From Candidatus Bathyarchaeota archaeon (GTDB lineage Archaea; Thermoproteota; Bathyarchaeia; Bathyarchaeales; Bathycorpusculaceae): a stretch of DNA of 64,000 nucleotides. Under the pieces are notes generated by a model. The model ran no database searches and had not been told where the DNA came from. It saw only the letters and a list, made by a program, of their open reading frames with translations. The translations under genes and the position numbers were made by a program. Positions 38,795 to 54,929 of the stretch are shown piece after piece; position 1 is the first letter of the stretch, and each line of letters starts with the position of its first letter. The DNA lies in contig OY969706.1 in assembly GCA_963702095.1 (NCBI GenBank), positions 1,728,001 to 1,792,000 on the forward strand, written 5' to 3'.

Positions 38795-39580
38795 ATGCGC
38801 CAAGTTGACATGACAAGGCTTGACCTTTCAGCGGGTACAGCCACCAAAATGATGGATTGGGTCGCGGAGGAGGTTCCGCTTAAAATAACCGTTAACAGCG
38901 AATACACTTTTGTCATCTGGTGCTCGCCCATGCAGTTCAAAGAGTTAGCTGTGGGGCACCTCTACGCCGAAGGCATCCTGCACTCGGTGGATGAAATCGA
39001 CGGGGTAACTGCGGGCGAGGTAAAAAACTTCTGCTATGTGCAATTCAAACCTGAAATCGACATTGGCGAACGCATGGAGAACCGACGCCAAGGAGCCCGA
39101 ATCGTGCCTTTGCTCAAAGCCAGCACCGCAGCCTACCAAAAAGACGCTAAACTATCCGTTGTACAATCGGATTTTACTGTTAAAGCGCAGGTTATCTTAG
39201 ACGCCATCGCCCAGATGAACGAAAAAGCCTGTGGCTTCCGCGAAACAGGCGGGCTCCACGACAGCGGCATATTTAGAGCCGACGGCACCATGGTTGCCTT
39301 CTCCGAGGATGTGGGCAGACACAACACCGTAGACAAAGTCATCGGCGAAGCCCTGCTTAACCGCTTAAACTTTGGCGAATGCTTCATGGTCATAACGGGC
39401 AGGGTGCCAGGCGACATGATTTACAAGGCGGCGAAAGTTGGTTTGCCTGTTTTGGCTTCGGTGGCGGCGGTGCTAAACTCTGGTGTAGCTTCAGCCGAGA
39501 AAGCCCACGTCACTGTTGTGGGGTTTGTGCGGGGTAAACGTATGAACGTCTACACTTGTCCAGGGCGGATCCAGCTTTAA
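38795..39580 (+). CDS. fdhD: Formate dehydrogenase accessory sulfurtransferase FdhD
   Basis: AEEVPL, TGGLH, EDVGRHNTVDKVIG, TGR and GFVRG. Confidence 0.93.
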   Translation: MRQVDMTRLDLSAGTATKMMDWVAEEVPLKITVNSEYTFVIWCSPMQFKELAVGHLYAEGILHSVDEIDGVTAGEVKNFCYVQFKPEIDIGERMENRRQGARIVPLLKASTAAYQKDAKLSVVQSDFTVKAQVILDAIAQMNEKACGFRETGGLHDSGIFRADGTMVAFSEDVGRHNTVDKVIGEALLNRLNFGECFMVITGRVPGDMIYKAAKVGLPVLASVAAVLNSGVASAEKAHVTVVGFVRGKRMNVYTCPGRIQL

Positions 39581-40116
39581 TCTTTGATTTCTTTTTTTAG
39601 TATCCCAATCAGTTTGACGCCTTCCTCAGGCAACTTAACCAGCGGTATCCCATCAAAACTGGTTTCAGGTGTGCCCTTTGTGTACAAGCCTGTAATCGCC
39701 AGCACTGGTCCAGAAGTGCCCTGCAGGGTTCGCTCCAAATCTTCTTTCTCTTTGGCAGTAACGATTTTTATGATGTCTTGGCGTTTAGAAATCAAACCGT
39801 GGAAGCCCTCTATGAAAACTATGTCGAGCCGTTCGTTCCGAATAAGCCCCAGTATTCTGTCGAGGTCTTTTAGTTCCTGCTCAGTCTTTTTTATGATGTC
39901 GATTTCATGGGGAGAGACGCCGACGACGACTTTGGCGCCTGCCTGAGCATAACGCCAAGTGTTGGTCCCTTCCCTGTCGATGGAAAAGTTTTCGTGGTGA
40001 ATGTGCTTAACTGCGCCGACGCAGTAGCCTTCCCCTGAGAAATGGGAAATGAGGTATTCGAGGACGGTGGTTTTTCCCGAGCCACTGATTCCAACTGATG
40101 CGATGATTAAAACCGT
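39577..40116 (-). CDS. mobB: Molybdopterin-guanine dinucleotide biosynthesis protein B (apparent ACG start)
   Basis: One continuous frame VLIIASVGISGSGKTT...AVKHIHH...DREGTNT...DIVFIEGF into the 39577..39795 ORF; no ATG/GTG/TTG upstream of the P-loop; ACG at 40116 behind GGAGAG. Confidence 0.88.
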   Translation of the reverse strand, partial: TVLIIASVGISGSGKTTVLEYLISHFSGEGYCVGAVKHIHHENFSIDREGTNTWRYAQAGAKVVVGVSPHEIDIIKKTEQELKDLDRILGLIRNERLDIVFIEGFHGLISKRQDIIKIVTAKEKEDLERTLQGTSGPVLAITGLYTKGTPETSFDGIPLVKLPEEGVKLIGILKKEIKD

Positions 40117-40308
40117 TGTTTTTTCTCTCCGTTGGATGTGATGGACTTGGCTTGTAATAAATAATGTCTCTGCCTACCTATAGCATGCCGACTATTCAAC
40201 GGTGCTAATTCCTGTGGCTAACAATACAGGATTTTGTTTGCGCTGATGGCGAACTTGCGGGTTTTCATTGGGCAGAATAAAGAGGTTAATGCAGAGTCCA
40301 AAACGCGT

Positions 40309-41988
40309 TTAGAGGTAGGCTTCTGTTACGTATCTGCGCATCATGCGGTGGCTGTTGAAGTAATACGCGATTTTTCCAATCGAGTTCTTCATAAGCCCGA
40401 TCCATTCGTCTCTGCGGTCATAATAGGTTGGGGTGATGACGTATTCGAGTTTGTTGTAGAGGTCCTCGAATTCTTTCTGGAAGCAAACGGGGTCGTCGAT
40501 GTTTTCGTTGGGGTGTGGTCCAATAGCCCAGCCGGTGAGGTTTTCTATCCAGCCCTCAATCCACCAGCCGTCGAGCACGCTGAAATTGAGGACGCCGTTG
40601 TGGGCTGCTTTCATGCCGCTGGTTCCAGACGCCTCCATCGGACGCAGTGGAGTATTTAACCACACATCCACGCCGCCCACCATTTTAGCAGCAATAGACA
40701 TGTCATAATTTTCTAAATACACGATTTCTAGGTCGCCCTTGAGTTGTTTGGCGTAGCTAAAGATTTGCTCGATTAAGCGTTTGCCGCCGCCGTCTCTTGG
40801 ATGTGCTTTGCCGGCGAATACTGCTTGGATTTTGGTTTTGTGGCTAATTGTGCGTAGCCGCTCAAGGTTAGAGAATAACAGCGTGGCACGTTTGTATTCG
40901 GTGGCTCGCCTAGCAAACCCCAATGTGAAGACATCGGGGTCAAGTTGGGCGTTGGCGGTTTGATTTGCGTAGTCAATAAGTGTCTGTTTTTGTTCTTGGT
41001 GTGCCTGCCAGATTTCGCCGTCGGGAATCAAATCCACTTTGGCGAGCAGTTCAGGCTCATTTGCCCAGCTGGGGAGGTATTCGTCGAATAGTTTGCGGTA
41101 GCTCTCTCCTGTCCAAGTGTAGGAGTGGACGCCGTTGGTTATGGCATGGATTTCGTAGCCTGTGAACATTTTGGAAGAGATTTCTTGGTGCCGTTTGGCG
41201 ACGCCGTTAACGTAGTTGCTGAGGTTGAGTGCGAGGCGCGTCATGTTGAGGCGTTCTTCGCCGCCGTAATCCTTGAGCAACGACAAATCGACTGTTTCGA
41301 GGACTTCGCGCACCAAGCCATAGTTGAAACGGTCATGTCCCGCTTCCACCGGCGTGTGAGTGGTAAAAACACAGAGTTCCTTGACTTTTTCCTCGGCCAT
41401 CGCGTATTTACGCATGAGTTCAACCGCTAAGAAGCTTGAGTGTCCCTCGTTCATGTGGTACTTGCGCACGTGGAAACCTAACGCGTCAAGCATGCGTACG
41501 CCGCCGAAACCCAAGATGGCTTCTTGTTTTAGGCGGTAGCGTTCGTCGCCGCCGTAGAGGTAATAGGTTATTTCACGATCCTGCGTTGCGTTGGCGTCGA
41601 AATCGGTGTCTAGGAACAACACTGGGACCACGCCACCTGGGATGCTTCTGTACTTGTAGAGCCAAGCCTTAACTTTGACTGTGCGTCCCTCGATCTGCAC
41701 GAAAACCTCGTTGGGCAGAAGCTTCATGAATTTTTCGGGGAACCATTCGTTAGGCTGTTCGGTTTGGCGGCCGTTTGCATCGAGTTTCTGCTTGAAATAG
41801 TTGCGGTGACTGATCAGGGTGACTCCGACGAGAGGCAGTTTCAAATCGGCGCTTGATCGTATGGCGTCGCCTGCTAGGGTGCCTAAGCCGCCTGCGTAAG
41901 TGGGAATCTCATTGGTTAAGCCTATTTCCATGGAGAAATAAGCGATTTTCTGCCCCTTTAGCACACCCTGTAAGTCATCGATTTGCAA
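40309..41988 (-). CDS. glgP: Alpha-glucan (glycogen/maltodextrin) phosphorylase
   Basis: AYFSMEIG, YAGGLG, HMNEGH, GFARRATEYKR and EASGTSGMK. Confidence 0.96.
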   Translation of the reverse strand: MQIDDLQGVLKGQKIAYFSMEIGLTNEIPTYAGGLGTLAGDAIRSSADLKLPLVGVTLISHRNYFKQKLDANGRQTEQPNEWFPEKFMKLLPNEVFVQIEGRTVKVKAWLYKYRSIPGGVVPVLFLDTDFDANATQDREITYYLYGGDERYRLKQEAILGFGGVRMLDALGFHVRKYHMNEGHSSFLAVELMRKYAMAEEKVKELCVFTTHTPVEAGHDRFNYGLVREVLETVDLSLLKDYGGEERLNMTRLALNLSNYVNGVAKRHQEISSKMFTGYEIHAITNGVHSYTWTGESYRKLFDEYLPSWANEPELLAKVDLIPDGEIWQAHQEQKQTLIDYANQTANAQLDPDVFTLGFARRATEYKRATLLFSNLERLRTISHKTKIQAVFAGKAHPRDGGGKRLIEQIFSYAKQLKGDLEIVYLENYDMSIAAKMVGGVDVWLNTPLRPMEASGTSGMKAAHNGVLNFSVLDGWWIEGWIENLTGWAIGPHPNENIDDPVCFQKEFEDLYNKLEYVITPTYYDRRDEWIGLMKNSIGKIAYYFNSHRMMRRYVTEAYL

Positions 41989-42358
41989 TTATGTTATGCC
42001 CCCTCTCTTGCGCTTAGAATCTGCCCTGTACTATTCTAAACGTAACTTATGCATTGGGTTGCGTTTAATATCTACCTTTCCGTAAAATACGTGTTTTCAT
42101 CGAGTGGTGTACAATAGAACATTTTTTTCATGAAATCGATTCAGGGCACTCTATTTTGCCGTCGAAGGCTCTGGGCTTTGATTGATTTTGTTTTTCTATT
42201 GTTAGATGAAGGCGGAGCGTCTCTTACTCTTCTTCTTCCTGTGGGCTTTGCTGGCGGCTGTTTTTTTGCTTCTGCGTTTGGCTTGGGTTGCTGGCTGGTT
42301 GTGGAGCAAGCCTCAATCAGAACACCAAACCTTTAGTCCACTGATTTAAAAAGGGAGA

Positions 42359-43513
42359 CTAAGTAGAGGGTGCTGGACGAGTGCCTAAAGGCACATGGAC
42401 AATTATTGTATCTGCGCCTCTCACGATGCGTAAGTCAACGTTTTGTCCAGGTAAAGTGTTCTCTTCAAGGTAGCTTGCTAAGTCATCGTTGTTGCGTATT
42501 GTCTGATTTACCTTGCCGTTATCCATGCCTACTAAAATGTCGTCAACTGTTAATTTGCCGTCACAGGGCCCGCCTCTTACAACCGAGGCGATTTTCCAGC
42601 CATAGGTAACCTTAGAGTTGCTTTCCTGCGCTAAGGGGTAACTCATGTCGGTTCCTGTGACGCCTAAATAGGAGTGCCCATTGTAGCCGCCCGTAGTAAT
42701 CAAAGACGGGATCTCCCGAAGAATAGTGTTGGAGGGAATAGCGAAGCCTAAACCCTGCGAATCGCTAACGATGGCAGTGGTTATGCCTACTACGTTGCCC
42801 ATGGAGTTAAGCAGTAATCCGCCCGAGTTGCCGGGGTTAATTGGTGTGCTGGTTTGGATAACGTTGGCTATGGCGTATTTATCGGCGGTGTCTTCGGTGA
42901 TGCTGCGTCCAGTTGCGCTGACGACGCCAGTGGTTAAGGAACCGACGAGACCATAGGGGTTTCCGATGGCTATTACGGGTTCGCCGACGCGCAGGGGAGA
43001 AGAACTAACGATTGTCACTGGTTTAAACTGGGATGAGTCTGCCCCGCTAACTGTGACTACGGCTAAGTCAGCGTAGGGGTCTTTACCTATGACGCTGGCG
43101 GGGTATCCTTTGCCACTGTTGAAGGTGACGCTTAACGAGGTTGTGTCTTCAACAACATGGTAGTTGGTTATGACAACGTATTGACCACCGTAATTGTAGA
43201 CAAAACCCGAACCCTGTACGCCGCCACCGTCACTTGTTTCCCCTTGAATCAGAACCACAGAGTCCTTCACGTTAGCGTACAGGTCAACCAGTGAAGTGCC
43301 ATTCTGCAGTATGGTGATGTTTTGGTACGTAACATTCTGGAAACCCTGAAGCCCCAAAAAGTCAGTCTGCAAGTTCGCCATCTGCCCAGTTAGGTTCTTG
43401 ACTTCTTGGTAGTTAACATAGAACATGAGTAATCCGCCGACGAGTAACCCTGCAACGAAGAGCAGTATGAATAGGCTGGCGGAGGCTTTAGTGGCACTCT
43501 TAGACGTTAACAC
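42359..43513 (-). CDS. Membrane-anchored HtrA/DegP-like serine protease with PDZ domain
   Basis: GSGF, TNYHVV, DLAV and INPGNSGG; C-terminal PDZ. Confidence 0.93.
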   Translation of the reverse strand: MLTSKSATKASASLFILLFVAGLLVGGLLMFYVNYQEVKNLTGQMANLQTDFLGLQGFQNVTYQNITILQNGTSLVDLYANVKDSVVLIQGETSDGGGVQGSGFVYNYGGQYVVITNYHVVEDTTSLSVTFNSGKGYPASVIGKDPYADLAVVTVSGADSSQFKPVTIVSSSPLRVGEPVIAIGNPYGLVGSLTTGVVSATGRSITEDTADKYAIANVIQTSTPINPGNSGGLLLNSMGNVVGITTAIVSDSQGLGFAIPSNTILREIPSLITTGGYNGHSYLGVTGTDMSYPLAQESNSKVTYGWKIASVVRGGPCDGKLTVDDILVGMDNGKVNQTIRNNDDLASYLEENTLPGQNVDLRIVRGADTIIVHVPLGTRPAPST

Positions 43514-43557
43514 TTAGGTACACCTCGAAACAGAATTACAGAATAAGAACATAAAAG

Positions 43558-44565
43558 TTACTGTACTCTGCGATCGATTAAGTCAAGTGCTTCAGGACCA
43601 GTACCGATCAAAGTGATGGGTATGCCTGTTCTGTTTTCAACCTCTTTTATGAAACCCTTGGCTTCCACGGGTAAATCATCAAACTCTCGGGCACTCCTAC
43701 AGGACGGGTAGAGCACATCGAGTTTAGTCATAGCACCCATCGTGGCTCCGTTGATCTTGGCAGTTTTCTTAGCTAACTCGAAATCGAAGGGTGCTGCCCT
43801 ACGGTCGCGTCCTGTTCCAGCGGCAACCTCAAACCAGCCCCGCTTCTGCGCTTCCTCCTTGCTGATTTCGCCGGGCAACGGTCCAGCGCCAACTCGGGTT
43901 ATGAATGATTTGTAGACTATGATGACGTCGTCGACTCTTGTGGGTCCAACGCCGGCTTCGGAGGCAATGGCGGATGCACCGGTATCTCTGCTGGTCACGT
44001 AGGGGTAGCCGCCGCTTAAGAAAAGGGACAACATAAAACCTTGAGTACCTTCCAGAAGCACCTTTTTGCCTTGGTCTAAGCCGTCGTTGACTTCGGCGAT
44101 TCCATCGCAGAGGTACGGTTGCAACTCAGGCATGTCTTTGGCAAGTTTTGCTGTGCGCCTCATGCGTTCTTCGATGGCTGGTCCGACACCCCAGCCGGTG
44201 GTGCCGATGCCCTTGTTCACGGCAGATGCCTTGTCTTGGTCGCTGTGCTTTTGCTCGATGATGGAGGCGTTTTTGTCTATGCCTACCCGTTTGGGGTCAA
44301 CTTGGGTTAACTCCATTTCCTTGAAGAACTGGCCGATGTGAACGTTTGAGCCTGCAGCGATTAGGAGCCGTGTTTTTGGGTTAATGAAAGCGGCTGGAAT
44401 CATGTGGAGAGCAAATTTTTTGTTTTCGTACCATACAGTGTGGGCTGCATTCACTGATCCTGTTCGAACGCAAAAGTCAAGGTTATCTTTTAGGGCTAAA
44501 TATGAGATTATTTTTCCTTTGCCTTCGTCTCCCCAGAAGGCGCCGACAATCACTTGGCATGGCAT
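43558..44565 (-). CDS. purA: Adenylosuccinate synthetase (short archaeal form)
   Basis: WGDEGKGK, LEGTQG, YPYVTS, TRVGAGP and TKLD. Confidence 0.96.
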   Translation of the reverse strand: MPCQVIVGAFWGDEGKGKIISYLALKDNLDFCVRTGSVNAAHTVWYENKKFALHMIPAAFINPKTRLLIAAGSNVHIGQFFKEMELTQVDPKRVGIDKNASIIEQKHSDQDKASAVNKGIGTTGWGVGPAIEERMRRTAKLAKDMPELQPYLCDGIAEVNDGLDQGKKVLLEGTQGFMLSLFLSGGYPYVTSRDTGASAIASEAGVGPTRVDDVIIVYKSFITRVGAGPLPGEISKEEAQKRGWFEVAAGTGRDRRAAPFDFELAKKTAKINGATMGAMTKLDVLYPSCRSAREFDDLPVEAKGFIKEVENRTGIPITLIGTGPEALDLIDRRVQ

Positions 44566-44615
44566 AACGTTTACCCTCTGAGAATTCAGCATAGCGCTTA
44601 TTTAAAGTTGTATGG

Positions 44616-44807
44616 TTAGCCGGATAGCTTTTCGGAGGATTTTTTGTCCTCGGTTATTAGTTCTGCTAATCGGTAGGTGACGTAGGCTGAGAAGCTTCGG
44701 ATGCCTTTTTTTATGGTATACTCTTCTTTCACTTTGAGCCATTCATTGAAAAAATAATCGTAAACTTCAGTCTTCACAGTGATGGTTTTGTAGCCCTTTT
44801 TCGGCGT
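44616..44807 (-). CDS. Small RHH-like protein (apparent ACG start), not in the ORF track
   Basis: (T/M)PKKGYKTITVKTEVYDYFFNEWLKVKEEY...SFSAYVTYRL; ACG behind GAGGGG; in-frame TAA five codons upstream. Confidence 0.72.
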   Translation of the reverse strand, partial: TPKKGYKTITVKTEVYDYFFNEWLKVKEEYTIKKGIRSFSAYVTYRLAELITEDKKSSEKLSG

Positions 44808-44826
44808 TGTGTTCCCCTCTTAGCAT

Positions 44827-44945
44827 AGTAACCGAACGTACATTTATATAAGGTTTAATGATACATGCGGTACTTCACCGTTAATTATATATTGTCAAAC
44901 GTACCGTAAAGTACGGAGACAAGTAGTTAGAGAGGAGTATCGGTT
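44827..44945. promoter_or_regulatory. Divergent promoter region with repeated GTAC boxes and short palindromes
   Basis: AACGTAC twice, CGGT-ACTTC-ACCG, CCGTA-AAG-TACGG, and TATA-like TTTATATAA and TTATATA. Confidence 0.5.
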
Positions 44946-45092
44946 TTGCCCAGAAAAGGTTACAAATGCATAACAGTGACAACAAAAATCCACGAGGACA
45001 TCAAAAAAAGAGCCAAAGAAACAAACCAAACAATCAAAGAATACATCGAATACCTACTCCAACAAGAGAAAGCCGCTAAAAAAGGAAAGTAG
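44946..45092 (+). CDS. Small RHH-like protein, paralog of 44616..44807
   Basis: MPRKGYKCITVTTKIHEDIKKRAKETNQTIKEYIEYLL; TTG behind GAGGAG. Confidence 0.72.
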   Translation: MPRKGYKCITVTTKIHEDIKKRAKETNQTIKEYIEYLLQQEKAAKKGK

Positions 45093-45095
45093 CCC

Positions 45096-45263
45096 TTGCC
45101 AGCCAAAATCATCCAGAGCAACGAACGCGTAGCCGAAGTACAATTCGTATGCGACGCATGCGGCAAATTGGTTAGAACAAGCATCATCCCAAAAAGCCAA
45201 GCAGACGCACTCTCAAACGATAAAATACTCTGCTGCCAATGCAAACACCATACCCGAAAATAA
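45096..45263 (+). CDS. Small zinc-ribbon protein
   Basis: MPAKIIQ...CDACGK...LCCQCK; starts 3 bp after the preceding stop. Confidence 0.65.
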   Translation: MPAKIIQSNERVAEVQFVCDACGKLVRTSIIPKSQADALSNDKILCCQCKHHTRK

Positions 45264-45272
45264 TTTTCTGCC

Positions 45273-45653
45273 TCAAGAGCGGCGTTTGAGCGCTTCAGAA
45301 TCGATAACTTCAAGCAGCTTAACTACGCGTTTACCCTTCAACTGCTTCTCAACCTCAGACACCGTGTTTCTAGCTTCACAAATTGTGTCAAGAACGATGC
45401 CTTTTTCTTCGTCAACAATGACAGGGTAAACCTGGCAGCCAGAGGGCCGATTTGAGTACACACTGCATCGCCGATTCGTCAGGTCGTAGAAGAAGCAGTA
45501 GCCTTCAAGGTTTTTTAGGGTAGCGTAGCCTTGCTTATCGAAGCGCACAAACTGGTTTCTGCGGTATCCCAATACTTCGAGGCGCTGAATATCTTTTTTT
45601 GAGAGCAGCATCTCTGTTTCGGTGCAGCATACTCCACAGTTTGAGCAACGCAT
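45273..45653 (-). CDS. YkgJ/CxxCxxCC family putative Fe-S or Zn cluster protein
   Basis: CSNCGVCC...CFFY...CSVYSNRPSGCQVYP. Confidence 0.9.
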   Translation of the reverse strand: MRCSNCGVCCTETEMLLSKKDIQRLEVLGYRRNQFVRFDKQGYATLKNLEGYCFFYDLTNRRCSVYSNRPSGCQVYPVIVDEEKGIVLDTICEARNTVSEVEKQLKGKRVVKLLEVIDSEALKRRS

Positions 45654-45704
45654 AACGGTGAATTAATGCGGCGGTATTTGTGCCTTTACCCGACGCGCGG
45701 TTGT

Positions 45705-45950
45705 TTATGCTGGGTTATTCATGAGGTTAACATTAATCATTTCTGCGTAGGCAATGGTTCGTAGTGGTATGCGTGTGTTTTTTCGGTTAGCTAGGTGGTA
45801 TTCGATTTGGTTGTTGTTTTTGCCTAAGCCCTTGTGGAGTCGTGTGAGTTGAACGTTGATGATTACTGCGCCGTCTTTTAGGTGTAGGTTCACGTTTCTT
45901 CCGATGTAGGATCTGGCGCTGTTTGCGCTGAAACTCTCCATGTTCACCAT
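45705..45950 (-). CDS. Small hypothetical protein, possibly Sm/LSm-like fold
   Basis: YIGRNVNLHLKDG...IPLRTI pattern. Confidence 0.6.
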   Translation of the reverse strand: MVNMESFSANSARSYIGRNVNLHLKDGAVIINVQLTRLHKGLGKNNNQIEYHLANRKNTRIPLRTIAYAEMINVNLMNNPA

Positions 45951-46215
45951 TCCTCTTCAGCATCGGCGATTTTGCTCCAGCACTGCTGGCAAATGGGCAG
46001 GTTTTCGCCTTTTATTTGGATATATAGTTTGATGTTTTCGCTTTTGCAGGTATCTTTCCAGGGGTTTCTACAATGCTCCATGTTTTTGCCTCAAAGTAGC
46101 GTTTGGCGTTTTTTGCTTATAAGGCACAGGTTTATGCGACTATTGCGTGGTGGGGAGGGGCAACTGAAAGTGAAAACTTAATACCCAGCGTCCACATTGG
46201 GCTAGTGAGAACTTT

Positions 46216-46662
46216 ATGGCGTTAACTGACCCAGTTGTGCTTATTGCCACAGTCACGGCTGTTATCCAAGTCATAGTCCTCTTTTTACTCATCTACGGCT
46301 ATACCTTAAAAGCCAAACTAGAGTATGCCCAACATGGAAAAGTCATGGCTTCAGCAGTCATAATCCATGCAGTAACGATAGTTTTGGTTATGCTTCCCTC
46401 CCTTGTCATAATAACATCGCCAAACTATGTCCTGCCTGAACCTGGAACACTATTCTATACAACCAGCATTGTTCATGTCGCTGCAGGCGCAATCGCATTC
46501 GCCTTAGGCATCGGGTTAGTTTTGGCTTGGCGGTTCAAAGACGTCAAAGGATGCTTTAAACGCAAAAGAATCATGGACCTTACAATAAGCCTATGGATTA
46601 TTGCATTGGTTTTAGGTGTTTCCCTCTATGTCGTCACTTACGGAACCCAACTGTTAATTTAA
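46216..46662 (+). CDS. DUF420-like four-TM membrane protein
   Basis: Four TMs with conserved-looking His residues (QHGKVM, IVHV). Confidence 0.72.
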   Translation: MALTDPVVLIATVTAVIQVIVLFLLIYGYTLKAKLEYAQHGKVMASAVIIHAVTIVLVMLPSLVIITSPNYVLPEPGTLFYTTSIVHVAAGAIAFALGIGLVLAWRFKDVKGCFKRKRIMDLTISLWIIALVLGVSLYVVTYGTQLLI

Positions 46663-47219
46663 AGATCAACGATCTCTGGGGTAATGGTTTCCTTTGTGAT
46701 TTTCAATAATCCCACCGAAAGTTGCCCCATAGACGTAGCTGGAACAGTGGGGCTGCCGGGGTTAATGAAGAGCGTTTTGTCCTCCCATTTAACGTTTGCA
46801 ACATGCGTGTGCCCATAAACAAAAACGTCGAAGCCATGCTCTTTTATGAGTTCCCTCATCTTGTTAAATCCGAAGGCGATGTCGGGGTCATGCATCACGC
46901 CGATTTTCCAGTCAAATACATGCAGCGTGTTTAGTCTAGGCAGGGCGCCGGCTACGTCCATACCATCCATGTTGCCGTGAACCGCTAAAACAGGCGCCAA
47001 CTGCTCCAACTCGTCCACAACCGCTAACTCCACTAAATCGCCTGCGTGTATGATGTAGTCTACTTTTTGGAAGATTTCGAGGACTCTTTGGGGTAGGATG
47101 TGGGCGTGTTTGGGGATGTGGGTGTCTGAGATTAAGCCGACGGTTTTGGCGGCTTTGAGTATGGGCGGTTCTTTACTTACGAGTGCTGTTCCACTTATCA
47201 TTATGTGGGTGCCTCCCAA
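46659..47219 (-). CDS. YfcE/MJ0936-family metallophosphoesterase
   Basis: ISDTH, HAGD, GNMD, GHTH and INPGS. Confidence 0.93.
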   Translation of the reverse strand: MGGTHIMISGTALVSKEPPILKAAKTVGLISDTHIPKHAHILPQRVLEIFQKVDYIIHAGDLVELAVVDELEQLAPVLAVHGNMDGMDVAGALPRLNTLHVFDWKIGVMHDPDIAFGFNKMRELIKEHGFDVFVYGHTHVANVKWEDKTLFINPGSPTVPATSMGQLSVGLLKITKETITPEIVDL

Positions 47220-47287
47220 ACAGGCGTACCAAGCTATCTATGGAATGCTATCAATAAAAAGGCATTCATGAAAAAAGAGGGAAGGCT

Positions 47288-48645
47288 CTAAGTCATGAAG
47301 CGCACCACGGTTTCATAGAAGACGCTTGTGCCCCAAACAAGGTTTTCTATGGTTAAGCGTTCGTCGATGCCGTGCATGCGTTTCTCGTATTCGTCGTTGG
47401 GTTCATCAGGCCGCACTGGGTGGAAGCCGTAGCAGACGCTGCCTGTTTCTCTGAAAAACCGTGAGTCGGTTCCGCCTGTGGTAAGAGTGGGGGTTAGGCG
47501 CAGTTCGGTTCAAGCTCTTTTAGTACGCTGGTTATGGCGCTGTAGAGGGAGGTTTGTGTGGTGGATTCTGAGCCGTCATGCATCTGGATTATTTCGTAGC
47601 TTAATTTGTCGTCCCCGACTTCTTTTAGCATGGTTTTGAATAGGTTAAGGGTTTGGTTTACGCTCTGTCCGGGTAAGACGCGGCAGTCGAAGGTGACCTC
47701 GCATTCGGAGGGGATTATGTTTTCTTTGCAGCCGCCCCGAATTATGGTTGGGGTGATGGTGGTTTTGGTTCGAGGTCTGATTTCCTCTGATAGGGCTTTG
47801 TCTTTTTTTGCGAGTTCATCGAGTATTTCCTCGCTTTGCCCCGGATTAGCCAGCAACCGATTGAATGTTTCTTGGTGCAGGGGGTTGCTTTTAGCAACTT
47901 CGGCTATGAACTCTTTTAGAGTTGAAACATACATTGTCGGCGGCTTATAGGCTGCCAGTTTCTCTATGACTTTGTTTATGCGTAGGATGGCGTTGTCAGC
48001 CATGTTCGGAGTTGACCCATGCCCCGGAGTGCCCTTCGCCTTAATCTTGAACCACAAAATGCCCTTCTCTGCCGTCTGAATGGGATACACGTTTCTGCCG
48101 TTCTGGGGAAACGCTGTTCCGCCTCCCTCGTTTAACACGTAGGGACACCAGACTTTTTCTTTGTGGCTACGCAACAGGTATCCTGCGCCTTCTTCACCGC
48201 CTGCTTCTTCGCCTGCAGTCGCAGCTAAAACGACGTCGCCTTTGAGGGCAACATTGTTTTTCTTAAGCAGCTTTAGCGTTAAAACTTCGACGGCGGTCAT
48301 ACCCTTCATGTCGATAGCGCCTCTGCCATAGACGTAGCCGTCTTTTACTGTGCCGGCAAACGGGTCCACGGTCCATTCGGCGGGATTCGCTGCAACCACG
48401 TCTAAGTGTGAGAGCAGTAGCAAGTTGGGTTTTTGGCCTGTTCCTTTGAGGCGGGTTACTACGCTGCCTCTGCCGGGGTCGGATTCGAAGATTTCGGATT
48501 CGAAGCCGTCTTTGGCAAGGTAGTCTGCGAGGAAGTGGGCTGCTTTGGTTTCGTTGCCAGGGGGGTTGGTGGTGTCTATTTGGATTAACTGTGAGAGGAA
48601 GCTTGTGATTTCCTCTTCGATTTCTTTTTGGATTTTTATGGGCAT
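47288..48645 (-). CDS. M20/M25/M40 family metallopeptidase/deacylase (frameshift near 47497)
   Basis: SHLDVV, GRGAIDMKG, NEGG and GHGS; the shifted frame continues LTPTLTTGGTDSRFF...MHGIDER to a stop at 47288. Confidence 0.9.
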
Positions 48646-48804
48646 AAACCGGGCTCCTGTCATGGTTTAGGCGGTTTTTTCTCTTAAGTATTCTGTTTCT
48701 GAGCTTTGAGGTTTTTTTGAAAAAATTTTAGTTATTCAACAACGATGTTTATATACTATGTCAAAAAATGCTTATTGAACCATAAAAATTACGAGTTGAG
48801 CGCA

Positions 48805-49317
48805 ATGAAAGAGCTAAAACCAATAGATTACAAAATTCTGTTTGAGCTAATGAAGGACTCACACAGAAGCGACCGACAATTAGCTAAAGCCCTGGGTGTT
48901 TCCCAGCCTACCGTGACCCGAAGACGAGCCATGTTAGAAGAAAACTTTATTGAAGGATACACTGTTATACCCAAATTCGGCCAAATCGGGTTTGAGATCG
49001 CAGCCATAACCTTCTTGAAGAGCAAACTAAAATACGAAACAGGCGACCAAAAAACCGCTGCTCTACAAAAAATGAAAGAATGGTACATGAAAAAGACCAA
49101 TGTCATTTTGGTTTTAGACGGCAGAGGCATGGGTTGGGATACAGTTTGCATTTCACTGCATGAAAATTTTGCAAATTTCGCCGAGTTCATCCGAGCTCAT
49201 GATTCGGAGTTGTCGGATTGGGTGGTTGAAAGCCAAACTTTCAATGCTGACCTCAAAGGCGGAATCGTCATCAAACCATTCCACCTCAAATACCTTGCTT
49301 CTCTGAAGCAACAATAA
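48805..49317 (+). CDS. Lrp/AsnC-family transcriptional regulator
   Basis: IDYKILFELMKDSHRSDRQLAKALGVSQPTVTRRR. Confidence 0.9.
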   Translation: MKELKPIDYKILFELMKDSHRSDRQLAKALGVSQPTVTRRRAMLEENFIEGYTVIPKFGQIGFEIAAITFLKSKLKYETGDQKTAALQKMKEWYMKKTNVILVLDGRGMGWDTVCISLHENFANFAEFIRAHDSELSDWVVESQTFNADLKGGIVIKPFHLKYLASLKQQ

Positions 49318-49622
49318 ACTTCTTTTTAGCCCTCCATTCTTATCCTTATTTATTTTTAAAAAAAACATGACTAAACCAGAACACCTTGCCGTTGCTAAGA
49401 AATAACACTATAATATATGTGAACCCTTGGAAAGGATTTAGTGGGGTTTAACTTTTTTGAGGAACCGTTTCTTGGGCAATTTGGGTTTTTTGACCCGTTC
49501 TGCATCAGCAGTCAAACCGATCAACCAATAGAATATTGGTTTGAAGCAAATATAAAATGAATGCATTTCCCTCGGAATATGGGTCATTGTCAATGTACCT
49601 ATAATGGGAGGGTGTCGGCGGT

Positions 49623-50915
49623 TTATTCGACAACGGGTTTCTTGTTTTTGTTGCCGAACCGCAGTTTTGCTGTGAGGATTTTCTCGGTTGCAAACAGCCG
49701 TGAAGCAATGTACATTATAACGACTGTGAAGGCGGCAACATAGATTATGCCTAAGATGACGGTTAAGTAGTTGCCTGCGACGACTTCTTTGGCGGCGATT
49801 ATGGGTTGACTGTAGGGAATGGCGTATAAGACTGCTTGCAAGGGGAGTGGCAGCGAGTTGATGTCGAGGTAGATCAATGCCATGGCTGGTAGGAAGATCA
49901 AAGGGTAGATGTAGCCGACAAGTGCCTGTGCGCCGCGGACGTTTTCGCTAAACGCTGACATTACCACTGCCAGTGCCAACGCAGAGAGCAACGTAAAGAA
50001 CAAGCTTATACCCAAGAGAACATAGCCGCCGAAGCTGGGAACAAGCCCCAACGCGACGAGATTTATACCTGCACCTCCAGTAGTGCTCGTGATGCCCATT
50101 GAAATCGAACCGAGCATGTAGTTGTAGCCTATTAGCACAGTGACTGCGGCGACGCCTGCGACGATGATTGTGCTTGAGACTTTTCCCATCAAAATCGCGA
50201 AGCGATCAACTGGTGTTGTTAGGAGGGTTTCGAGGGTTTTTTCTTCTTTTTCCATGGCAACGCTGGTTGCAGCAATCTGCATCGCATACGTCAACATAAT
50301 CATAATGGTAATTGGCAACGCAATGGATTGGGAAAGCATCAATCCGCCTAAAACGCTGGCGTCTACGCCTTCTTGGATTTGACCTTTGATAATGCTTGAC
50401 TGGGAAACCACAACTAAGTCGGGTGCGACGGCGCGGTTGAAACCTTCTACCAGTAGCGATACGCTTGAGCCGCCGATGCCGCTAAAGATACTGCCGCCGC
50501 CGTTGAACACGCCGTAAACTGCAACGGTGCCTGTGACGTCATAGTTGCCTGCGGCATGTTGCGTCAAATTAGCACTGAAATCCCGCGGTATAACCACAAA
50601 CAGGGAGCTATTGTACTGCGTAAGCAGGGCTTGGTCTACGATTTGCTGCGGTTGTGTGTCGTTTATGACGGAGACGTTCATGCTGGCGTTCATGTATCTC
50701 ACAAACGTACTGCTCCAGTTGCCGTTGTCGTTATCCACAATCAGCAATGTTGAACGGAGCGCTTCGTTCTGCGCGGTCTCCACTGCATAACCCAACACTA
50801 GCCCCAAAACCGGGAACATAATCAGGGGCAAAACAATCATGCCTATGAGGATTTTGGGGTCGCGCCCTAGCTCTTTTAGTTCCTTAAGCAGAATTGTTGT
50901 GAAGCCCTTAAGCAT
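49623..50915 (-). CDS. ABC-2 (NatB-like) exporter permease
   Basis: KELKEL.RD and EKEEKTLETLLTTPV...GK. Confidence 0.92.
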   Translation of the reverse strand: MLKGFTTILLKELKELGRDPKILIGMIVLPLIMFPVLGLVLGYAVETAQNEALRSTLLIVDNDNGNWSSTFVRYMNASMNVSVINDTQPQQIVDQALLTQYNSSLFVVIPRDFSANLTQHAAGNYDVTGTVAVYGVFNGGGSIFSGIGGSSVSLLVEGFNRAVAPDLVVVSQSSIIKGQIQEGVDASVLGGLMLSQSIALPITIMIMLTYAMQIAATSVAMEKEEKTLETLLTTPVDRFAILMGKVSSTIIVAGVAAVTVLIGYNYMLGSISMGITSTTGGAGINLVALGLVPSFGGYVLLGISLFFTLLSALALAVVMSAFSENVRGAQALVGYIYPLIFLPAMALIYLDINSLPLPLQAVLYAIPYSQPIIAAKEVVAGNYLTVILGIIYVAAFTVVIMYIASRLFATEKILTAKLRFGNKNKKPVVE

Positions 50916-51639
50916 AGCCGACCACCTTCATGAAAACCTCTTCGAGATTCTCAGCCCTATACTGCCCTTTGAGCGCTTGAGGTTCGCCTTCAACAACCAG
51001 TTTGCCCTTGTTAACAAGTGCCACTCGGTTGCAGAGGTGTTCCACTTCAAGCATGTTGTGGCTGCTCAACAGAACGGTTACGCCGTGTTCTTTGACGTAG
51101 CGCTTAACGATTTCTCGGATATGATAAGCGTACATGACATCAAGGCCGCTTGCGGGTTCATCGAGTACAGCCAACTTGGGCTTAGTCATCAGCGCCCGCG
51201 CAACCAGCAACCGCCGTTTCATGCCTTTGCTGTAGGTTTTGGCTTTGTCTTTTAAGCGGTCACCTAACCCGCAAATTATCGCTGCCTCCGCCACAACCTC
51301 TTTAATGTTCGTGCCCGGCGCGGCTTGGAGTTTAGCCATGAAGTTGAGGTATTCCCACCCTGTGAGGTTGGGGTATGCACCGGATTCTTCGGGGAGATAA
51401 CTGAGGATTTGACGGGTTTTCTCTGGTTGTTTGGTGGCGTCTTGACCGAAAATGTTGATGACGCCGCCTGTGGGCTTGATTAAGGTGCAGACCATGCGGA
51501 TGGTTGTGGTTTTGCCTGCGCCGTTTGGACCGATTAAACCGAAAATTTCGCCTGGTTTGATGTTAAAGTTGATGCCGTCAACTGCTCTTATCTGGCCAAA
51601 CTGCTTTGTTAACGAAACCGCTTCTACTGCATACGGCAA
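50908..51639 (-). CDS. ABC exporter ATP-binding subunit
   Basis: GPNGAGKTT, YSKGMKRR, LDEP and SSH. Confidence 0.95.
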   Translation of the reverse strand: MPYAVEAVSLTKQFGQIRAVDGINFNIKPGEIFGLIGPNGAGKTTTIRMVCTLIKPTGGVINIFGQDATKQPEKTRQILSYLPEESGAYPNLTGWEYLNFMAKLQAAPGTNIKEVVAEAAIICGLGDRLKDKAKTYSKGMKRRLLVARALMTKPKLAVLDEPASGLDVMYAYHIREIVKRYVKEHGVTVLLSSHNMLEVEHLCNRVALVNKGKLVVEGEPQALKGQYRAENLEEVFMKVVGYA

Positions 51640-51980
51640 AGTTGTGCCCTCTTTCCTCTCCAATAAGCAGGTAGGATTTTAAGGCTTTTTGGTACAGCGC
51701 TTAGATAAGGATTGCAGTTTTGCGTTTGTATTTCTTAGCCAGTTTAACTCGGTGCCTGTAAGCTAAGTAGGAACTGAACCAGAGCAGGCTCCGAAACCAG
51801 CTATTTGAAGTAACATCCAAGGATCTAACATATTCCTCTCTCCTCGCCCATGTTGTATCCATGGCTTATTTAATTTTCCATATTTTTCTATAAAAAAGCC
51901 CCGTCTACTATGGTAGGAGCTCAAAAATTGCCTTTATCTGCAAAATAGCTGCTTAGTAGCGAGCGTTATGGCAACCCGTT

Positions 51981-52155
51981 TGATACATATCGCCACATCC
52001 ACAGGGCGGCGACTCCAACATAGAGCCATGCAGGGCGTGTGGAGAAAAACCCATATCCCACACCGAAACAGACGCCAAAAAACGTTGCAACCGCAAAAAG
52101 CAACCGCCCTCTTTTGGCATCTTGTGGCACCCTGCAAACCCGCATAAAGAGAGAG
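51981..52155 (+). repeat. Dispersed ~180-bp intergenic repeat, copy 3
   Basis: GATACAT...CATCCACA...TATCCCACACCGAAACAG...AACGTTGCAACC...CTTGTGGCACCC...CATAAAGAGAG. Confidence 0.9.
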
Positions 52156-52354
52156 ACCTAATTTGCTTGCGAATCAAAGCTACAACATGCATCTAGAACC
52201 CCACTAACATTCCAATTCATCGCTTTGGCAGAATAGACACCTTGTTTATGCATCAATTTAATAAACAGAAAGTCCTAAACATAGATGAGCCATGAACAGC
52301 CAAGACTACCAACCTAAACCATATACTTACACGCCCATTATTACAACCGTAGTT

Positions 52355-53329
52355 ATGCCGCTTCTGATTTTTGGACGAGGCAAAAAGAAGGACGCAGCCC
52401 AAGCCCAAGCGCAGCAACCCGACGCTGAGCAGGCGCCCCCGCCGAAGCCTAAACCCAAAAAACACACAGGACTCACCGTACAAAAATACGAAATCACCGA
52501 AGACAAACTCGAATTTTCGGCGTTGAAAGGGCTTTTCAAAAAAAGCTGGGGTGTAATCAAAGAATTCCCCTTAAACGAAATCTCTGCGGTTGAGTTTGAG
52601 GGCAACTGGCTGAGCCTAACATGGAAAGATGAAAACCAACAGTTTATGCTAAAAAAGAAAACTGACTCCTTCGCCAAACTCAACGAGGAGCTACAGGCGA
52701 AAATCGAGGAGCAACACCAAAACCAACTCAAAGCTGAACGTGCTGCCCTGCAAAGGAGCGAGCTCTTAGCCGCTGTGAACACGTTTTTGCCGGCGGTGGA
52801 TGCTTCGTTTGATGTTTTGATGGGGTTGCATGAGAAAAGAGTAAACTGGACCCTGCTTGAAAGCTATGTCCAGCCTTTAGGTGGCACTTTGAGTTTCAAA
52901 GCGCAAACGCTCCTCCCGCTGGAGCTGGATTTCACAAAAGTAGCGGCTGCCATAAAAACCGAGGCACCCAACGTCGCCTCCAAAGAAGCATTCGCAGTGC
53001 TTAAGGCGATTCACAGCTATTTTATAGCGCAAAAACCCGAGGAGGATTCGGCGGATGCCGTAGCCAATTTTGAGCAGGTTAAAGAGTTGATTTTGGCTTA
53101 TTATACACTCAATGATTTGATGTTTGCGCAGGTCATTGAAGAAAAGGATAATGCAAAAGAATCAGCGGCGTTTGAGACTGTGTTAGCGGATTTGGCAGCT
53201 CAAACCAACTTTAAACTTGCCGCAGATGGGTTCAAGGAGAGTTTCGAGGCGTTGGGTGTTAATGAGGAGCGGGGCGAGGCTGTTTTGGATGCTCGGTTGC
53301 TGTTTAGGACCCAGTTGAAGCAGCTTTAG
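52355..53329 (+). CDS. Hypothetical protein (PH-like beta domain followed by helical bundle)
   Basis: Long ORF with protein-like composition; fold call is by eye. Confidence 0.75.
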   Translation: MPLLIFGRGKKKDAAQAQAQQPDAEQAPPPKPKPKKHTGLTVQKYEITEDKLEFSALKGLFKKSWGVIKEFPLNEISAVEFEGNWLSLTWKDENQQFMLKKKTDSFAKLNEELQAKIEEQHQNQLKAERAALQRSELLAAVNTFLPAVDASFDVLMGLHEKRVNWTLLESYVQPLGGTLSFKAQTLLPLELDFTKVAAAIKTEAPNVASKEAFAVLKAIHSYFIAQKPEEDSADAVANFEQVKELILAYYTLNDLMFAQVIEEKDNAKESAAFETVLADLAAQTNFKLAADGFKESFEALGVNEERGEAVLDARLLFRTQLKQL

Positions 53330-53441
53330 GCTTGTGGTTTTTGCTTTTGTGCGGTGAGGGCTTTTTTTGTTGTTTTCTGGGTAACCTTTAAGAGTATGCC
53401 GCGTGGCATATACTAGTTGTCCCCTAACAGGAGGACCAAAA

Positions 53442-54218
53442 ACGAAAAACAAAACAATCATAACAACCCTCATTCTAACAATCCTACCCCTCCTCCTAAT
53501 AACCACCCCCCAAACCGCATCTGCCACACCCTGGGATATTCAACTAACCGACGCCACTGGAGCAACAACCATAACCCTCACCTACGCCAACCTCACTGCC
53601 CTGCCCCAAACCACCGTCTTCGCAGACCTCCGATGCTACGGCTCTCCCGTAACCAGCGGAAACTGGGTCGGCGTCCAACTCTCACAAATCCTAAACCAAG
53701 TGGGATATGACTCCAATGTGGGTTCAGTTGATTTTAAAGCCCAAGATGGCTATAAAGTCAGTTTGTCACTCGACACTGCCCTGCTACCAGATGTGATTAT
53801 CGCTTACGAAAAAGACGGGGCGTTACTAGGCGAGACCTACCGATTGGTTGTTCCAATGGCAAACGGCAACGTCTGGATATCGATGATCACAAGCATTAGT
53901 TTAAGCAATACTGTAATAACGTCAAGTTTATCCTCAAACTCTATGCCTCCGACAGAGCCCTCATGGATAACGGGGCAAACCGATCAACCTACGCCGACAC
54001 CACAAGCCTCCACTCCCAGCCCCAGCGCCGCCCCCACAGAGACTCCCCAATCAACTCCTTTGCCCTCAAATGACGTTACTCAAACCCCACCGTCTCAGCC
54101 TAACGATCCAGCTACATTGAGTTTTCCCTATGCAACCGTCATTGCAGTAGTGTTGGTTTTTGTGTTTGCTGCAGCTGCGGGTTTTGTGGTTTATCATCGC
54201 AGAAGAAGCACCGCTTAA
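53442..54218 (+). CDS. Secreted, C-terminally anchored sulfite-oxidase-like Moco-domain protein (apparent ACG start)
   Basis: LRCYG, WVGVQL, AQDGY, IIAYEKDG and RLVVP; AGGAGG precedes ACG-AAA-AAC-AAA, giving a canonical signal peptide; alternative GTG at 53403. Confidence 0.8.
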   Translation, partial: TKNKTIITTLILTILPLLLITTPQTASATPWDIQLTDATGATTITLTYANLTALPQTTVFADLRCYGSPVTSGNWVGVQLSQILNQVGYDSNVGSVDFKAQDGYKVSLSLDTALLPDVIIAYEKDGALLGETYRLVVPMANGNVWISMITSISLSNTVITSSLSSNSMPPTEPSWITGQTDQPTPTPQASTPSPSAAPTETPQSTPLPSNDVTQTPPSQPNDPATLSFPYATVIAVVLVFVFAAAAGFVVYHRRRSTA

Positions 54219-54368
54219 TCACTTTCATTCCCCCTTTTCTGTTGTTTTTTTGTTGTACAGAATTTTCAATAAATATGTAAACGCTGTTGCTTTGATACTG
54301 CTTGGGGATTCGCTAACATTATATACATAACCGCCCAATTGGGTAGTCAGACAGTGGGGGATTAATAA

Positions 54369-54929
54369 ACGTCAAAGAATCCGCAACAAAAAGATGAAGC
54401 ACTGGAAGCCTTAGACTTCATCGTTAATGTTTTAAAAGAGCATGAACGGGACTTAGACAAGCTTATCAGCGAGTTAGCCACTGTTACTGAACAGATGGGT
54501 GACACCGGCGAGTTAACCGGCAAAGTGGAGAAGGTTGAAGAAAAAATCGGCAATCTCCAAAAAGAAGTTACGAATCTGGTCGGTTACATGTCAGGCATGC
54601 CTAAAGAAGCCGCAGCCATTGCAGTTAAAGAACAGTCAGCACAGGCTCAGGTAGCAACTGCACCTGCGGTTGCACATGGGGGACCATCGGTGGTTGTTAG
54701 GTGTCAGCAATGGCAGGACTTCCAATCTATGGCAATGGGGGCTCAGACAATTTCGTTTAGCTACAAAGAAGAAGAAAAGTTGTTCCAAGCAGACGCGCTT
54801 AGGGGCAACCAAATCATAACTTACAAGGGTCCCTTGCCCAACTTGACATTGGTTCTTAAAGCGTTTTTGTCTAAGGAACTCGGCGTTTCTGAACGCAGCA
54901 TTCTCGAAGGCGCCTTAGCCATCAGCTAA
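54369..54929 (+). CDS. Hypothetical protein with N-terminal coiled coil (apparent ACG start)
   Basis: Frame open 42 codons upstream of the ATG at 54495 (SKNPQQKDEALEALDFIVNVLKEHERDLDKLI); ACG directly follows an in-frame TAA and lies behind GTGGGGG. Confidence 0.75.
   Translation, partial: TSKNPQQKDEALEALDFIVNVLKEHERDLDKLISELATVTEQMGDTGELTGKVEKVEEKIGNLQKEVTNLVGYMSGMPKEAAAIAVKEQSAQAQVATAPAVAHGGPSVVVRCQQWQDFQSMAMGAQTISFSYKEEEKLFQADALRGNQIITYKGPLPNLTLVLKAFLSKELGVSERSILEGALAIS

Follow-up and report, generated by a model that had tools for sequence, protein, structure and literature searches.

Comparison of orthologous sequences suggests that ACG is a real translation start codon in the archaeal class Bathyarchaeia, probably one that is selected by Shine-Dalgarno (SD) pairing and read as a near-cognate codon by the ordinary initiator tRNA. 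The starting point is a window of 64,000 nucleotides (G000:C1:1728001-1792000) from the genome of a Candidatus Bathyarchaeota archaeon (G000, a single contig of 2.94 Mb with 46.8% G+C), in which four genes appear to open with ACG. These are mobB (site a), a small gene (gene b), a gene encoding a protein with a molybdopterin oxidoreductase domain (gene c), and a gene without a significant Pfam family (gene d) [Table 1]. The initial annotation of the window proposed that this lineage either routinely uses SD-guided ACG starts or edits ACG to AUG. Alignment of orthologs supports this either-or interpretation: the codon at the aligned start is ACG again, or ATG, TTG, or GTG, and no other threonine codon was seen at this position among the ortholog loci examined.

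Prokaryotic starts are taken to be ATG, GTG, and TTG, together with a few rare others. To our knowledge, ACG is not among the start codons of NCBI translation table 11 and gene finders disallow it. Gene callers therefore pass over ACG, and a listing of open reading frames (ORFs) made with default starts opened none of the four genes at this codon.

The main evidence is comparative, i.e., it comes from orthologs and not from the statistics of a single genome. Many species have been sequenced in the genus to which the window's genome belongs, and the start regions were aligned for each gene family among the loci returned by homology search. Genomes are referred to by G-numbers (G000 is the window's own genome and G007 its close relative) and loci by L-numbers. 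The relatives are metagenome-assembled genomes of Candidatus Bathyarchaeota or Bathyarchaeia, obtained in peat, wetland, soil, and sediment projects that follow many naming schemes. The same C recurs in dozens of these other assemblies, which excludes a base-call error of one assembly; the possibility raised in the initial annotation, that the true base at these positions is T, was thus not upheld. A systematic T-to-C miscall at ATG would have to be repeated in dozens of independent assemblies, and we consider an artefact of this kind extremely unlikely, even though the G000 assembly apparently does carry homopolymer frameshifts.

With respect to the latter, an out-of-frame ATG with an SD is located just upstream of the coding frame near positions 1608093, 1620497, 2383839, and 2331112 of G000, in the first case before a run of seven A residues. 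These out-of-frame ATGs likely reflect indel errors of the single-contig assembly, and such errors may be the cause of its completeness estimate of 90%.

ACG at the starts of the four genes

In mobB, no ATG, GTG, or TTG is present in frame before the P-loop, and ACG stands behind GGAGAG, both as originally read in the sequence. The first canonical codon is found 107 codons downstream of the ACG, beyond the P-loop. Matches to mobB are present in 37 genomes; in the best 12 loci, the position of this ACG is occupied by ACG in six, ATG in five, and TTG in one, and GGAG is kept 9 to 10 nt upstream of the start in all 12.

At the start of gene b, 28 of 30 loci of the genus have ACG and the other two have ATG. 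In a second set, which overlaps with the first and consists of contigs with one genome per species, ACG is present in 60 of 69 loci and ATG in nine; ACA, ACC, and ACT are absent. The second codon, which encodes proline, does vary (CCG 42, CCA 16, CCC 9, and CCT 2 among the 69 loci). Since the third base is frozen in all 60 ACG loci, the ACG of gene b is very unlikely to be an ordinary internal threonine codon. Moreover, 51 of these 60 loci have no in-frame ATG, GTG, or TTG upstream, and in five of them a stop codon immediately precedes the ACG. In the window, an in-frame TAA is positioned five codons upstream; this stop, the reading ACG-PKKGYKTITV behind GAGGGG, and the TTG-initiated paralog on the other strand are all present as first described. 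It was also pointed out in the initial annotation that the four ACG codons of the window follow an A. This holds for the four sites, but the preceding base is not conserved: across the gene b orthologs it is A, C, G, or T.

Gene b and its divergent paralog are roughly 140 nt apart (44616..45092), and the family is multicopy, with e.g., four copies in G016. A short gene resembling adenylosuccinate synthetase (43558..44592, minus strand) follows 24 nt downstream of gene b.

For gene c, ACG is the probable start, as judged from the alignment. Most of the 20 orthologous and paralogous loci start with ATG-AAA-AAG-AAA, which aligns on the ACG-AAA-AAC-AAA of gene c. ACG itself is found in four of the 20 (the own genome, G007, G050, and G010), and in G050 and G010 the stretch from the upstream stop to the hydrophobic core contains no canonical start codon. 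The AGGAGG in front of ACG-K-N-K-T-I-I stands as originally described, but an upstream in-frame GTG had gone unmentioned [see below]. In the gene c ortholog of G002 (L042), an ACG precedes a run of eight A residues but is shifted by one base relative to the frame. With one A less this sequence would read ACG-AAA-AAA-ATC-TTG, a normal signal-peptide start, and the frame offset may be due to a homopolymer error or to slippage.

The ACG of gene d directly follows an in-frame TAA behind GTGGGGG and opens 42 extra codons, in agreement with the initial annotation, the first canonical start being located 42 codons downstream. Among 20 ortholog loci, the aligned codon is TTG in 14, ATG in three, and ACG in three. 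The ACG loci are those of the own genome, its close relative G007 and, separately, G010.

Threonine codons behave differently within genes. Opposite internal methionine columns of orthologous genes they are mixed (ACA 22, ACC 16, ACG 11, and ACT 5); hence, the exclusive use of ACG is specific to start positions.

dnaG, HtpX, and the distribution of ACG starts in Bathyarchaeia

Two further cases, the primase-like gene dnaG and an HtpX-like protease gene, came from a screen for coding potential upstream of any canonical start together with the ortholog tally described in the next section; both genes were named by reading of the translation, with no family search. dnaG starts with ACG-GGA in all 30 loci of the genus, of which 29 align directly and one has a two-codon insertion. 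AGGAG is positioned 10 nt upstream of the ACG and the next canonical codon is 12 to 149 codons downstream. On the upstream side, the frame is free of canonical codons in 26 of the 30 loci. In one further genome of the genus, dnaG starts with ATG.

Outside the genus, ACG opens dnaG in six of six other genera of the same family. In other families of the order, ACG is present in five of 13 loci and a canonical codon in eight. Among these ACG loci, that of G040 has a stop three codons upstream, which leaves nothing canonical available. Within the order, ACG is also found at the dnaG start of G136, and G096 has a probable CTG. In other orders of the class, where the loci were read by eye and left unscored, one ACG is seen among 40 loci (G127), the rest being canonical; this ACG aligns with the ATG of G107, a genome of the same family. 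In the dnaG genes of other families, ACG and ATG swap just downstream of the SD sequence GGAGGTG (L276 and L278 compared with L277, L281, and L286), such that some genomes have ACG-CTT-ATG-GG and others ATG-CTT-ACG-GG.

The start of the HtpX-like gene is TTG in 15, ATG in eight, GTG in three, ACG in two, and CTG in one of 30 loci, with the remaining locus misaligned. ACG alternates with ATG, TTG, and GTG at homolog-defined starts, the alignment extending over all four genes of the window, dnaG, and HtpX. In gene b and dnaG, ACG at the start has been held over long evolutionary times.

Table 1. Genes, start codons, and Shine-Dalgarno (SD) motifs discussed in the text. Positions are those of the window, except for dnaG (positions in G000).
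Feature	Position	Strand	Remarks
mobB, MobB P-loop protein	39577..40116	-	179 codons from ACG; Pfam PF03205, E = 1.4e-27
mobB start ACG	40116..40114	-	read in sequence
SD of mobB, GGAGAG	40125..40130	-	8 nt upstream of ACG
gene b	44616..44807	-	63 codons; no Pfam family; ACG at 44807..44805; reads ACG-PKKGYKTITV
SD of gene b, GAGGGG	44814..44819	-	6 nt upstream of ACG; GAGGG/GAGGGG conserved among orthologs
gene b paralog	44946..45092	+	TTG-PRKGYKCITV start; divergent neighbor of gene b
gene c, signal peptide, molybdopterin-binding oxidoreductase domain, C-terminal membrane anchor	53442..54218	+	probable start ACG at 53442; Pfam PF00174, E = 2.9e-17
SD of gene c, AGGAGG	53429..53434	+	7 nt upstream of ACG
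in-frame GTG, alternative gene c start	53403..53405	+	13 codons upstream of ACG; in G000 and G007
gene d, coiled-coil-like N-terminus	54369..54929	+	186 codons; no significant Pfam family; ACG directly after TAA TAA
SD-like GTGGGGG of gene d	54354..54360	+	8 nt upstream of ACG; GGGGG/GGGG run conserved in orthologs
dnaG	1330784..1331977	-	outside the window

Frequency and upstream context of ACG starts

To estimate how often ACG is used, G000 was compared with a sample of 1.2 Mb drawn from three relatives. The first canonical starts are mutually aligned in 276 gene pairs. In 22 filtered pairs, a non-canonical codon stands opposite the partner's start, and ACG is the commonest of these codons (four of 22), followed by ACA, TTA, and ATA with two each, the rest being single. 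Where only pairs with an ATG partner are considered, the counts are ACG 3, ATA 2, ATC 1, and AGG 1. Many of the non-ACG cases look like shadow ORFs; a loose first version of the tally was full of them and was set aside in favor of the filtered one. ACG accordingly makes up about 0.7% of homolog-defined starts. This value is a rough lower bound, since genes such as dnaG and gene b, which have ACG in both members of a pair, do not enter the count. The initial annotation had considered ACG starts to be routine. They do recur, but only about one start in 100 to 150 is of this kind.

Other non-canonical codons were encountered at homolog-defined starts [loci L152 and L162 in G003, L274 in G024, L307 in G096, and position 117874 in G000]. 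A gene of G003 has CTG opposite GTG with GGAGG upstream, CTG is found at the HtpX start of G024, and the codon at 117874 in G000 is a CTG opposite ATG. In another instance, ATC in G003 is opposite ATG, with the next canonical start 54 codons further on. Separately, a long conserved ORF (LQWGIAFG...) that runs from 1944826 on the plus strand of G000, and that is also present in G014, has a stop directly upstream and no ATG, GTG, or TTG for approximately 110 codons in either genome. Out-of-frame ATGs are located just before this ORF and a gene c paralog lies upstream of it. Frameshifting, readthrough, or another odd start is possible in this case.

The 3′ end of the 16S rRNA is GGATCACCTCCT, which confirms the anti-SD sequence, and an SD motif is present 6 to 10 nt upstream at each of the four ACG sites. 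Relative to 2065 predicted canonical starts, the upstream context of sites a to d ranks at the 96th, 86th, 82nd, and 68th percentile, respectively, with dnaG at the 74th and HtpX at the 97th. An SD 4-mer is found at only 46% of these 2065 starts.

A model for initiation at ACG

On the basis of the alignments discussed above, we suggest the following model. SD pairing 6 to 10 nt upstream would place the small ribosomal subunit, whereupon the ordinary initiator Met-tRNA (anticodon CAU) would accept the unedited ACG as near-cognate despite a C·A mismatch in the middle of the codon, the one position at which ACG differs from AUG. Methionine would hence be the first residue, and initiation at ACG is presumably weaker than at AUG. 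The conserved ACG codons may have been kept because low or regulated expression is useful. SD-guided placement with a single mismatch in the middle of the codon fits both the above-median upstream context of the ACG sites and the anti-SD sequence.

Three tRNAs with anticodon CAT were called by aragorn in G000. One is of the initiator type, with A1-U72 and GGG/CCC in the anticodon stem; its gene (2619773-2619876) is interrupted by a 25-nt intron immediately following the anticodon loop. Among the aragorn calls of G000 there is no initiator-like tRNA with anticodon CGT, and as the sole CGT tRNA is of the elongator type, no special initiator for ACG would be involved. The initiation factor aIF1 is encoded in the genome.

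Alternative explanations: start elsewhere

A number of observations weigh against SD-guided initiation at ACG. The in-frame GTG upstream of gene c offers an alternative start [Table 1]. In three of the five dnaG ACG loci from other families, an in-frame ATG is positioned two codons upstream, inside the SD sequence GGAGGTGATG, and in G032, likewise of another family, an in-frame GTG lies three codons upstream, again inside the SD. Three DNA runs from a single sample, with small shares, yielded short contigs that are mostly 90 to 95% alike and say nothing about the four sites. Statistics on G000 alone are weak as well. In G000, GGAGG is found within 16 nt upstream of 1.06% of ATG, 1.13% of TTG, and 0.84% of ACG codons, the last value resembling that of the remaining NCG codons; the genome makes too little use of SD motifs for this count to be informative about ACG. 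Near the onset of coding potential in G000, ACG amounts to seven of 31, compared with 5 to 11% for other codons. A cleaner test of enrichment at the onset gave seven of 139 for ACG versus 176 of 12026, with p = 0.005 at one threshold, and p = 0.024 and p = 0.22 at others. The single-genome enrichment of ACG is hence suggestive only. The last group of unfavorable observations concerns mismatches in tRNA stems and is treated together with editing below.

Several other ways of finding the start codon were discarded. An expectation-maximization start model with 61 free codons drifted away to the second codon of the genes (AAA and GAA). No codon was preferred among the best candidates of 55 genes that have coding potential upstream of the first canonical start, and when candidates that outscored the best canonical start were counted, the result was mostly noise. 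A test for codons conserved in both genomes caught conserved SD motifs read in frame, and a stricter version of it yielded too little (ACG 2 and AGG 3). Among individual candidates in G000, the ACG at 2331112 probably belongs to a frameshifted fragment of a topoisomerase VI B-like gene (from reading of the translation only, with no family search); those at 1168199 and 1577108 have a poor upstream context and may be shadow ORFs.

The upstream GTG of gene c would be accommodated if ACG were an ordinary threonine codon and the true start were located elsewhere, at a downstream GTG or TTG or at another codon upstream, or if the genes were decaying. The presence of a GTG 11 codons downstream of the gene b ACG, and of in-frame canonical codons upstream in some orthologs (nine of the 60 ACG loci of gene b), point in the same direction. 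However, an ordinary threonine codon would vary among ACA, ACC, ACG, and ACT, and the downstream GTG of gene b is not conserved, other loci having GTT, GTA, or GTC instead. Several loci have a stop codon immediately before the ACG. Moreover, a downstream start would remove the P-loop strand of MobB, 12 to 149 conserved codons of dnaG, and 42 conserved codons of gene d. Decay of the genes is contradicted by the conservation of their proteins across the genus. Taken together, these data make a start elsewhere improbable.

Alternative explanations: editing of the ACG codon

The second branch of the original proposal is C-to-U editing of the mRNA. In this scenario, the C of ACG would be deaminated to give AUG and the genomic ACG would be a silent placeholder. 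In every family examined, some loci have ATG where others have ACG, which is consistent with this scenario; so is the presence at some homolog-defined starts of CTG, which editing would convert to UUG. We regard editing as unlikely on the present sequence data, yet deserving of attention given the tRNA observations that follow.

The tRNA that decodes ACG, tRNA-Thr(CGU), is encoded at 440628-440704 of G000, outside the window, and has a C4·A69 mismatch in its acceptor stem. Among the 30 loci of the genus (L352-L381), position 4 is C in 20 and T in 10, and A69 is present in all but one. Position 4 hence shows the same alternation of C and T as the ACG starts, where U is the working base. An A6·C67 mismatch is also found in the acceptor stems of tRNA-Arg(UCU) and tRNA-Arg(CCU) (G000 2104629-2104706 and 2255255-2255332). 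Editing would mend both types of mismatch. A crude parser applied to all aragorn calls, including doubtful ones, returned 37 stem mismatches, of which 15 are A·C or C·A. It is known that A·C mismatches in tRNA stems can be tolerated, and the A·C pairs seen here may be either tolerated or edited. The broader proposal, that Bathyarchaeia have site-specific C-to-U editing that both restores AUG at ACG starts, including that of dnaG, and repairs C·A mismatches in tRNA, appears to us slightly more doubtful than editing of the starts as such.

Several findings argue against editing. Neither TCG nor GCG, from which the same change would yield UUG and GUG, was seen at the starts examined, though TTG is the commonest start in gene d and HtpX. 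Apart from the SD, the bases that flank ACG are not conserved in the gene b orthologs. Nor is there a wider trace of C-to-U changes in coding sequences: TGG is opposite CGG once and opposite TGG 696 times, no excess of C/T is seen at conserved Trp, Phe, and Tyr codons, and across 73317 columns whose flanks are conserved, nonsynonymous differences are more often A/G than C/T, i.e., there is no signature like that of organelles. The C·A mismatches of the tRNAs may be an exception to this lack of further edited sites. A search with PF00383 for the cytidine deaminase (CDA) fold gave a single hit, a 163-amino-acid ORF resembling dCMP deaminase, and no deaminase fused to an RNA-binding domain. A search for the DYW domain (PF14432) gave no match; this result says little since the control matched no genome either. 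The gene with the CDA fold (L351 13..1965; G000 ~2752217-2754169) is located 51 nt downstream of a 469-amino-acid ORF, the C-terminal half of which looks like a methyltransferase.

Implications and comparison with known systems

Among the papers listed in a library that lacks most subscription journals, judged by title or abstract, none reports ACG starts in archaea or bacteria, which is not proof of absence; those on ACG starts concern eukaryotes, their viruses, and plant organelles. The principle of ACG initiation is known from eukaryotes. What appears to be new is that, throughout an archaeal family, housekeeping genes have a conserved, SD-guided ACG as their only start. In one study, archaea are described as permitting AUG, GUG, and UUG starts, and aIF1 as rejecting AUU in Sulfolobus (PMC4705826). 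A viral tRNA-Thr(CGU) is discussed in passages of another work that are not about starts (10.64898/2026.09.13.751334).

If ACG is a working start codon in this whole class of abundant uncultured archaea, dnaG, mobB, and a widespread small gene family would be truncated or missed in every automatic annotation of Bathyarchaeia, and completeness estimates based on marker genes may suffer. It would also mean that archaeal initiation, with its eukaryote-type factors, shares the eukaryotic tolerance of ACG, which bears on the evolution of start-codon stringency. That ACG is strictly conserved in dnaG and gene b suggests regulation by means of a weak start codon. Should editing be correct instead, it would represent a new kind of RNA processing in archaea and the first mRNA editing known there.

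With regard to editing, the closest likeness is to plant organelles, where ACG start codons of chloroplast and mitochondrial genes are edited to AUG. The resemblance lies in conserved genes whose first codon is ACG in the DNA but ATG in relatives. In contrast, the archaeon has no wider C-to-U signature in its coding sequences, and, as discussed above, the search for a PPR-DYW-type factor was empty, with a control that was silent too. C-to-U changes in archaeal RNA do occur: in Methanopyrus kandleri, CDAT8 edits C8 of tRNA to U8, and an activity of this type would explain the C4·A69 of tRNA-Thr(CGU). The position in question is 4 and not 8, however, and instead of a fusion between a deaminase and an RNA-binding domain only the 163-amino-acid CDA-fold ORF was found. 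We know of no link between tRNA editing by CDAT8 and mRNA.

Turning to initiation at ACG by the ordinary initiator tRNA, the GUG and UUG starts of prokaryotes, together with rare AUU and CUG starts such as that of bacterial infC, are similar in that they depart from AUG by one base, are led by an SD, and interchange with ATG. In these codons the mismatch is at the first or third position, whereas in ACG it is in the middle. Near-cognate initiation at the very same codon is found in eukaryotes and their viruses, with VP2 of adeno-associated virus and plant AGAMOUS as examples. The mechanism is presumably the same, i.e., a CAU initiator that tolerates a mismatch at the middle position within the e/aIF2 and e/aIF1 apparatus, and the use of ACG for low or regulated output is a further likeness. 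The two cases differ in how the site is chosen, by SD pairing in Bathyarchaeia and by scanning and Kozak context in eukaryotes. Moreover, the eukaryotic ACG is the start of an alternative isoform, whereas in Bathyarchaeia it would be the sole start of housekeeping genes such as dnaG, conserved across the family.

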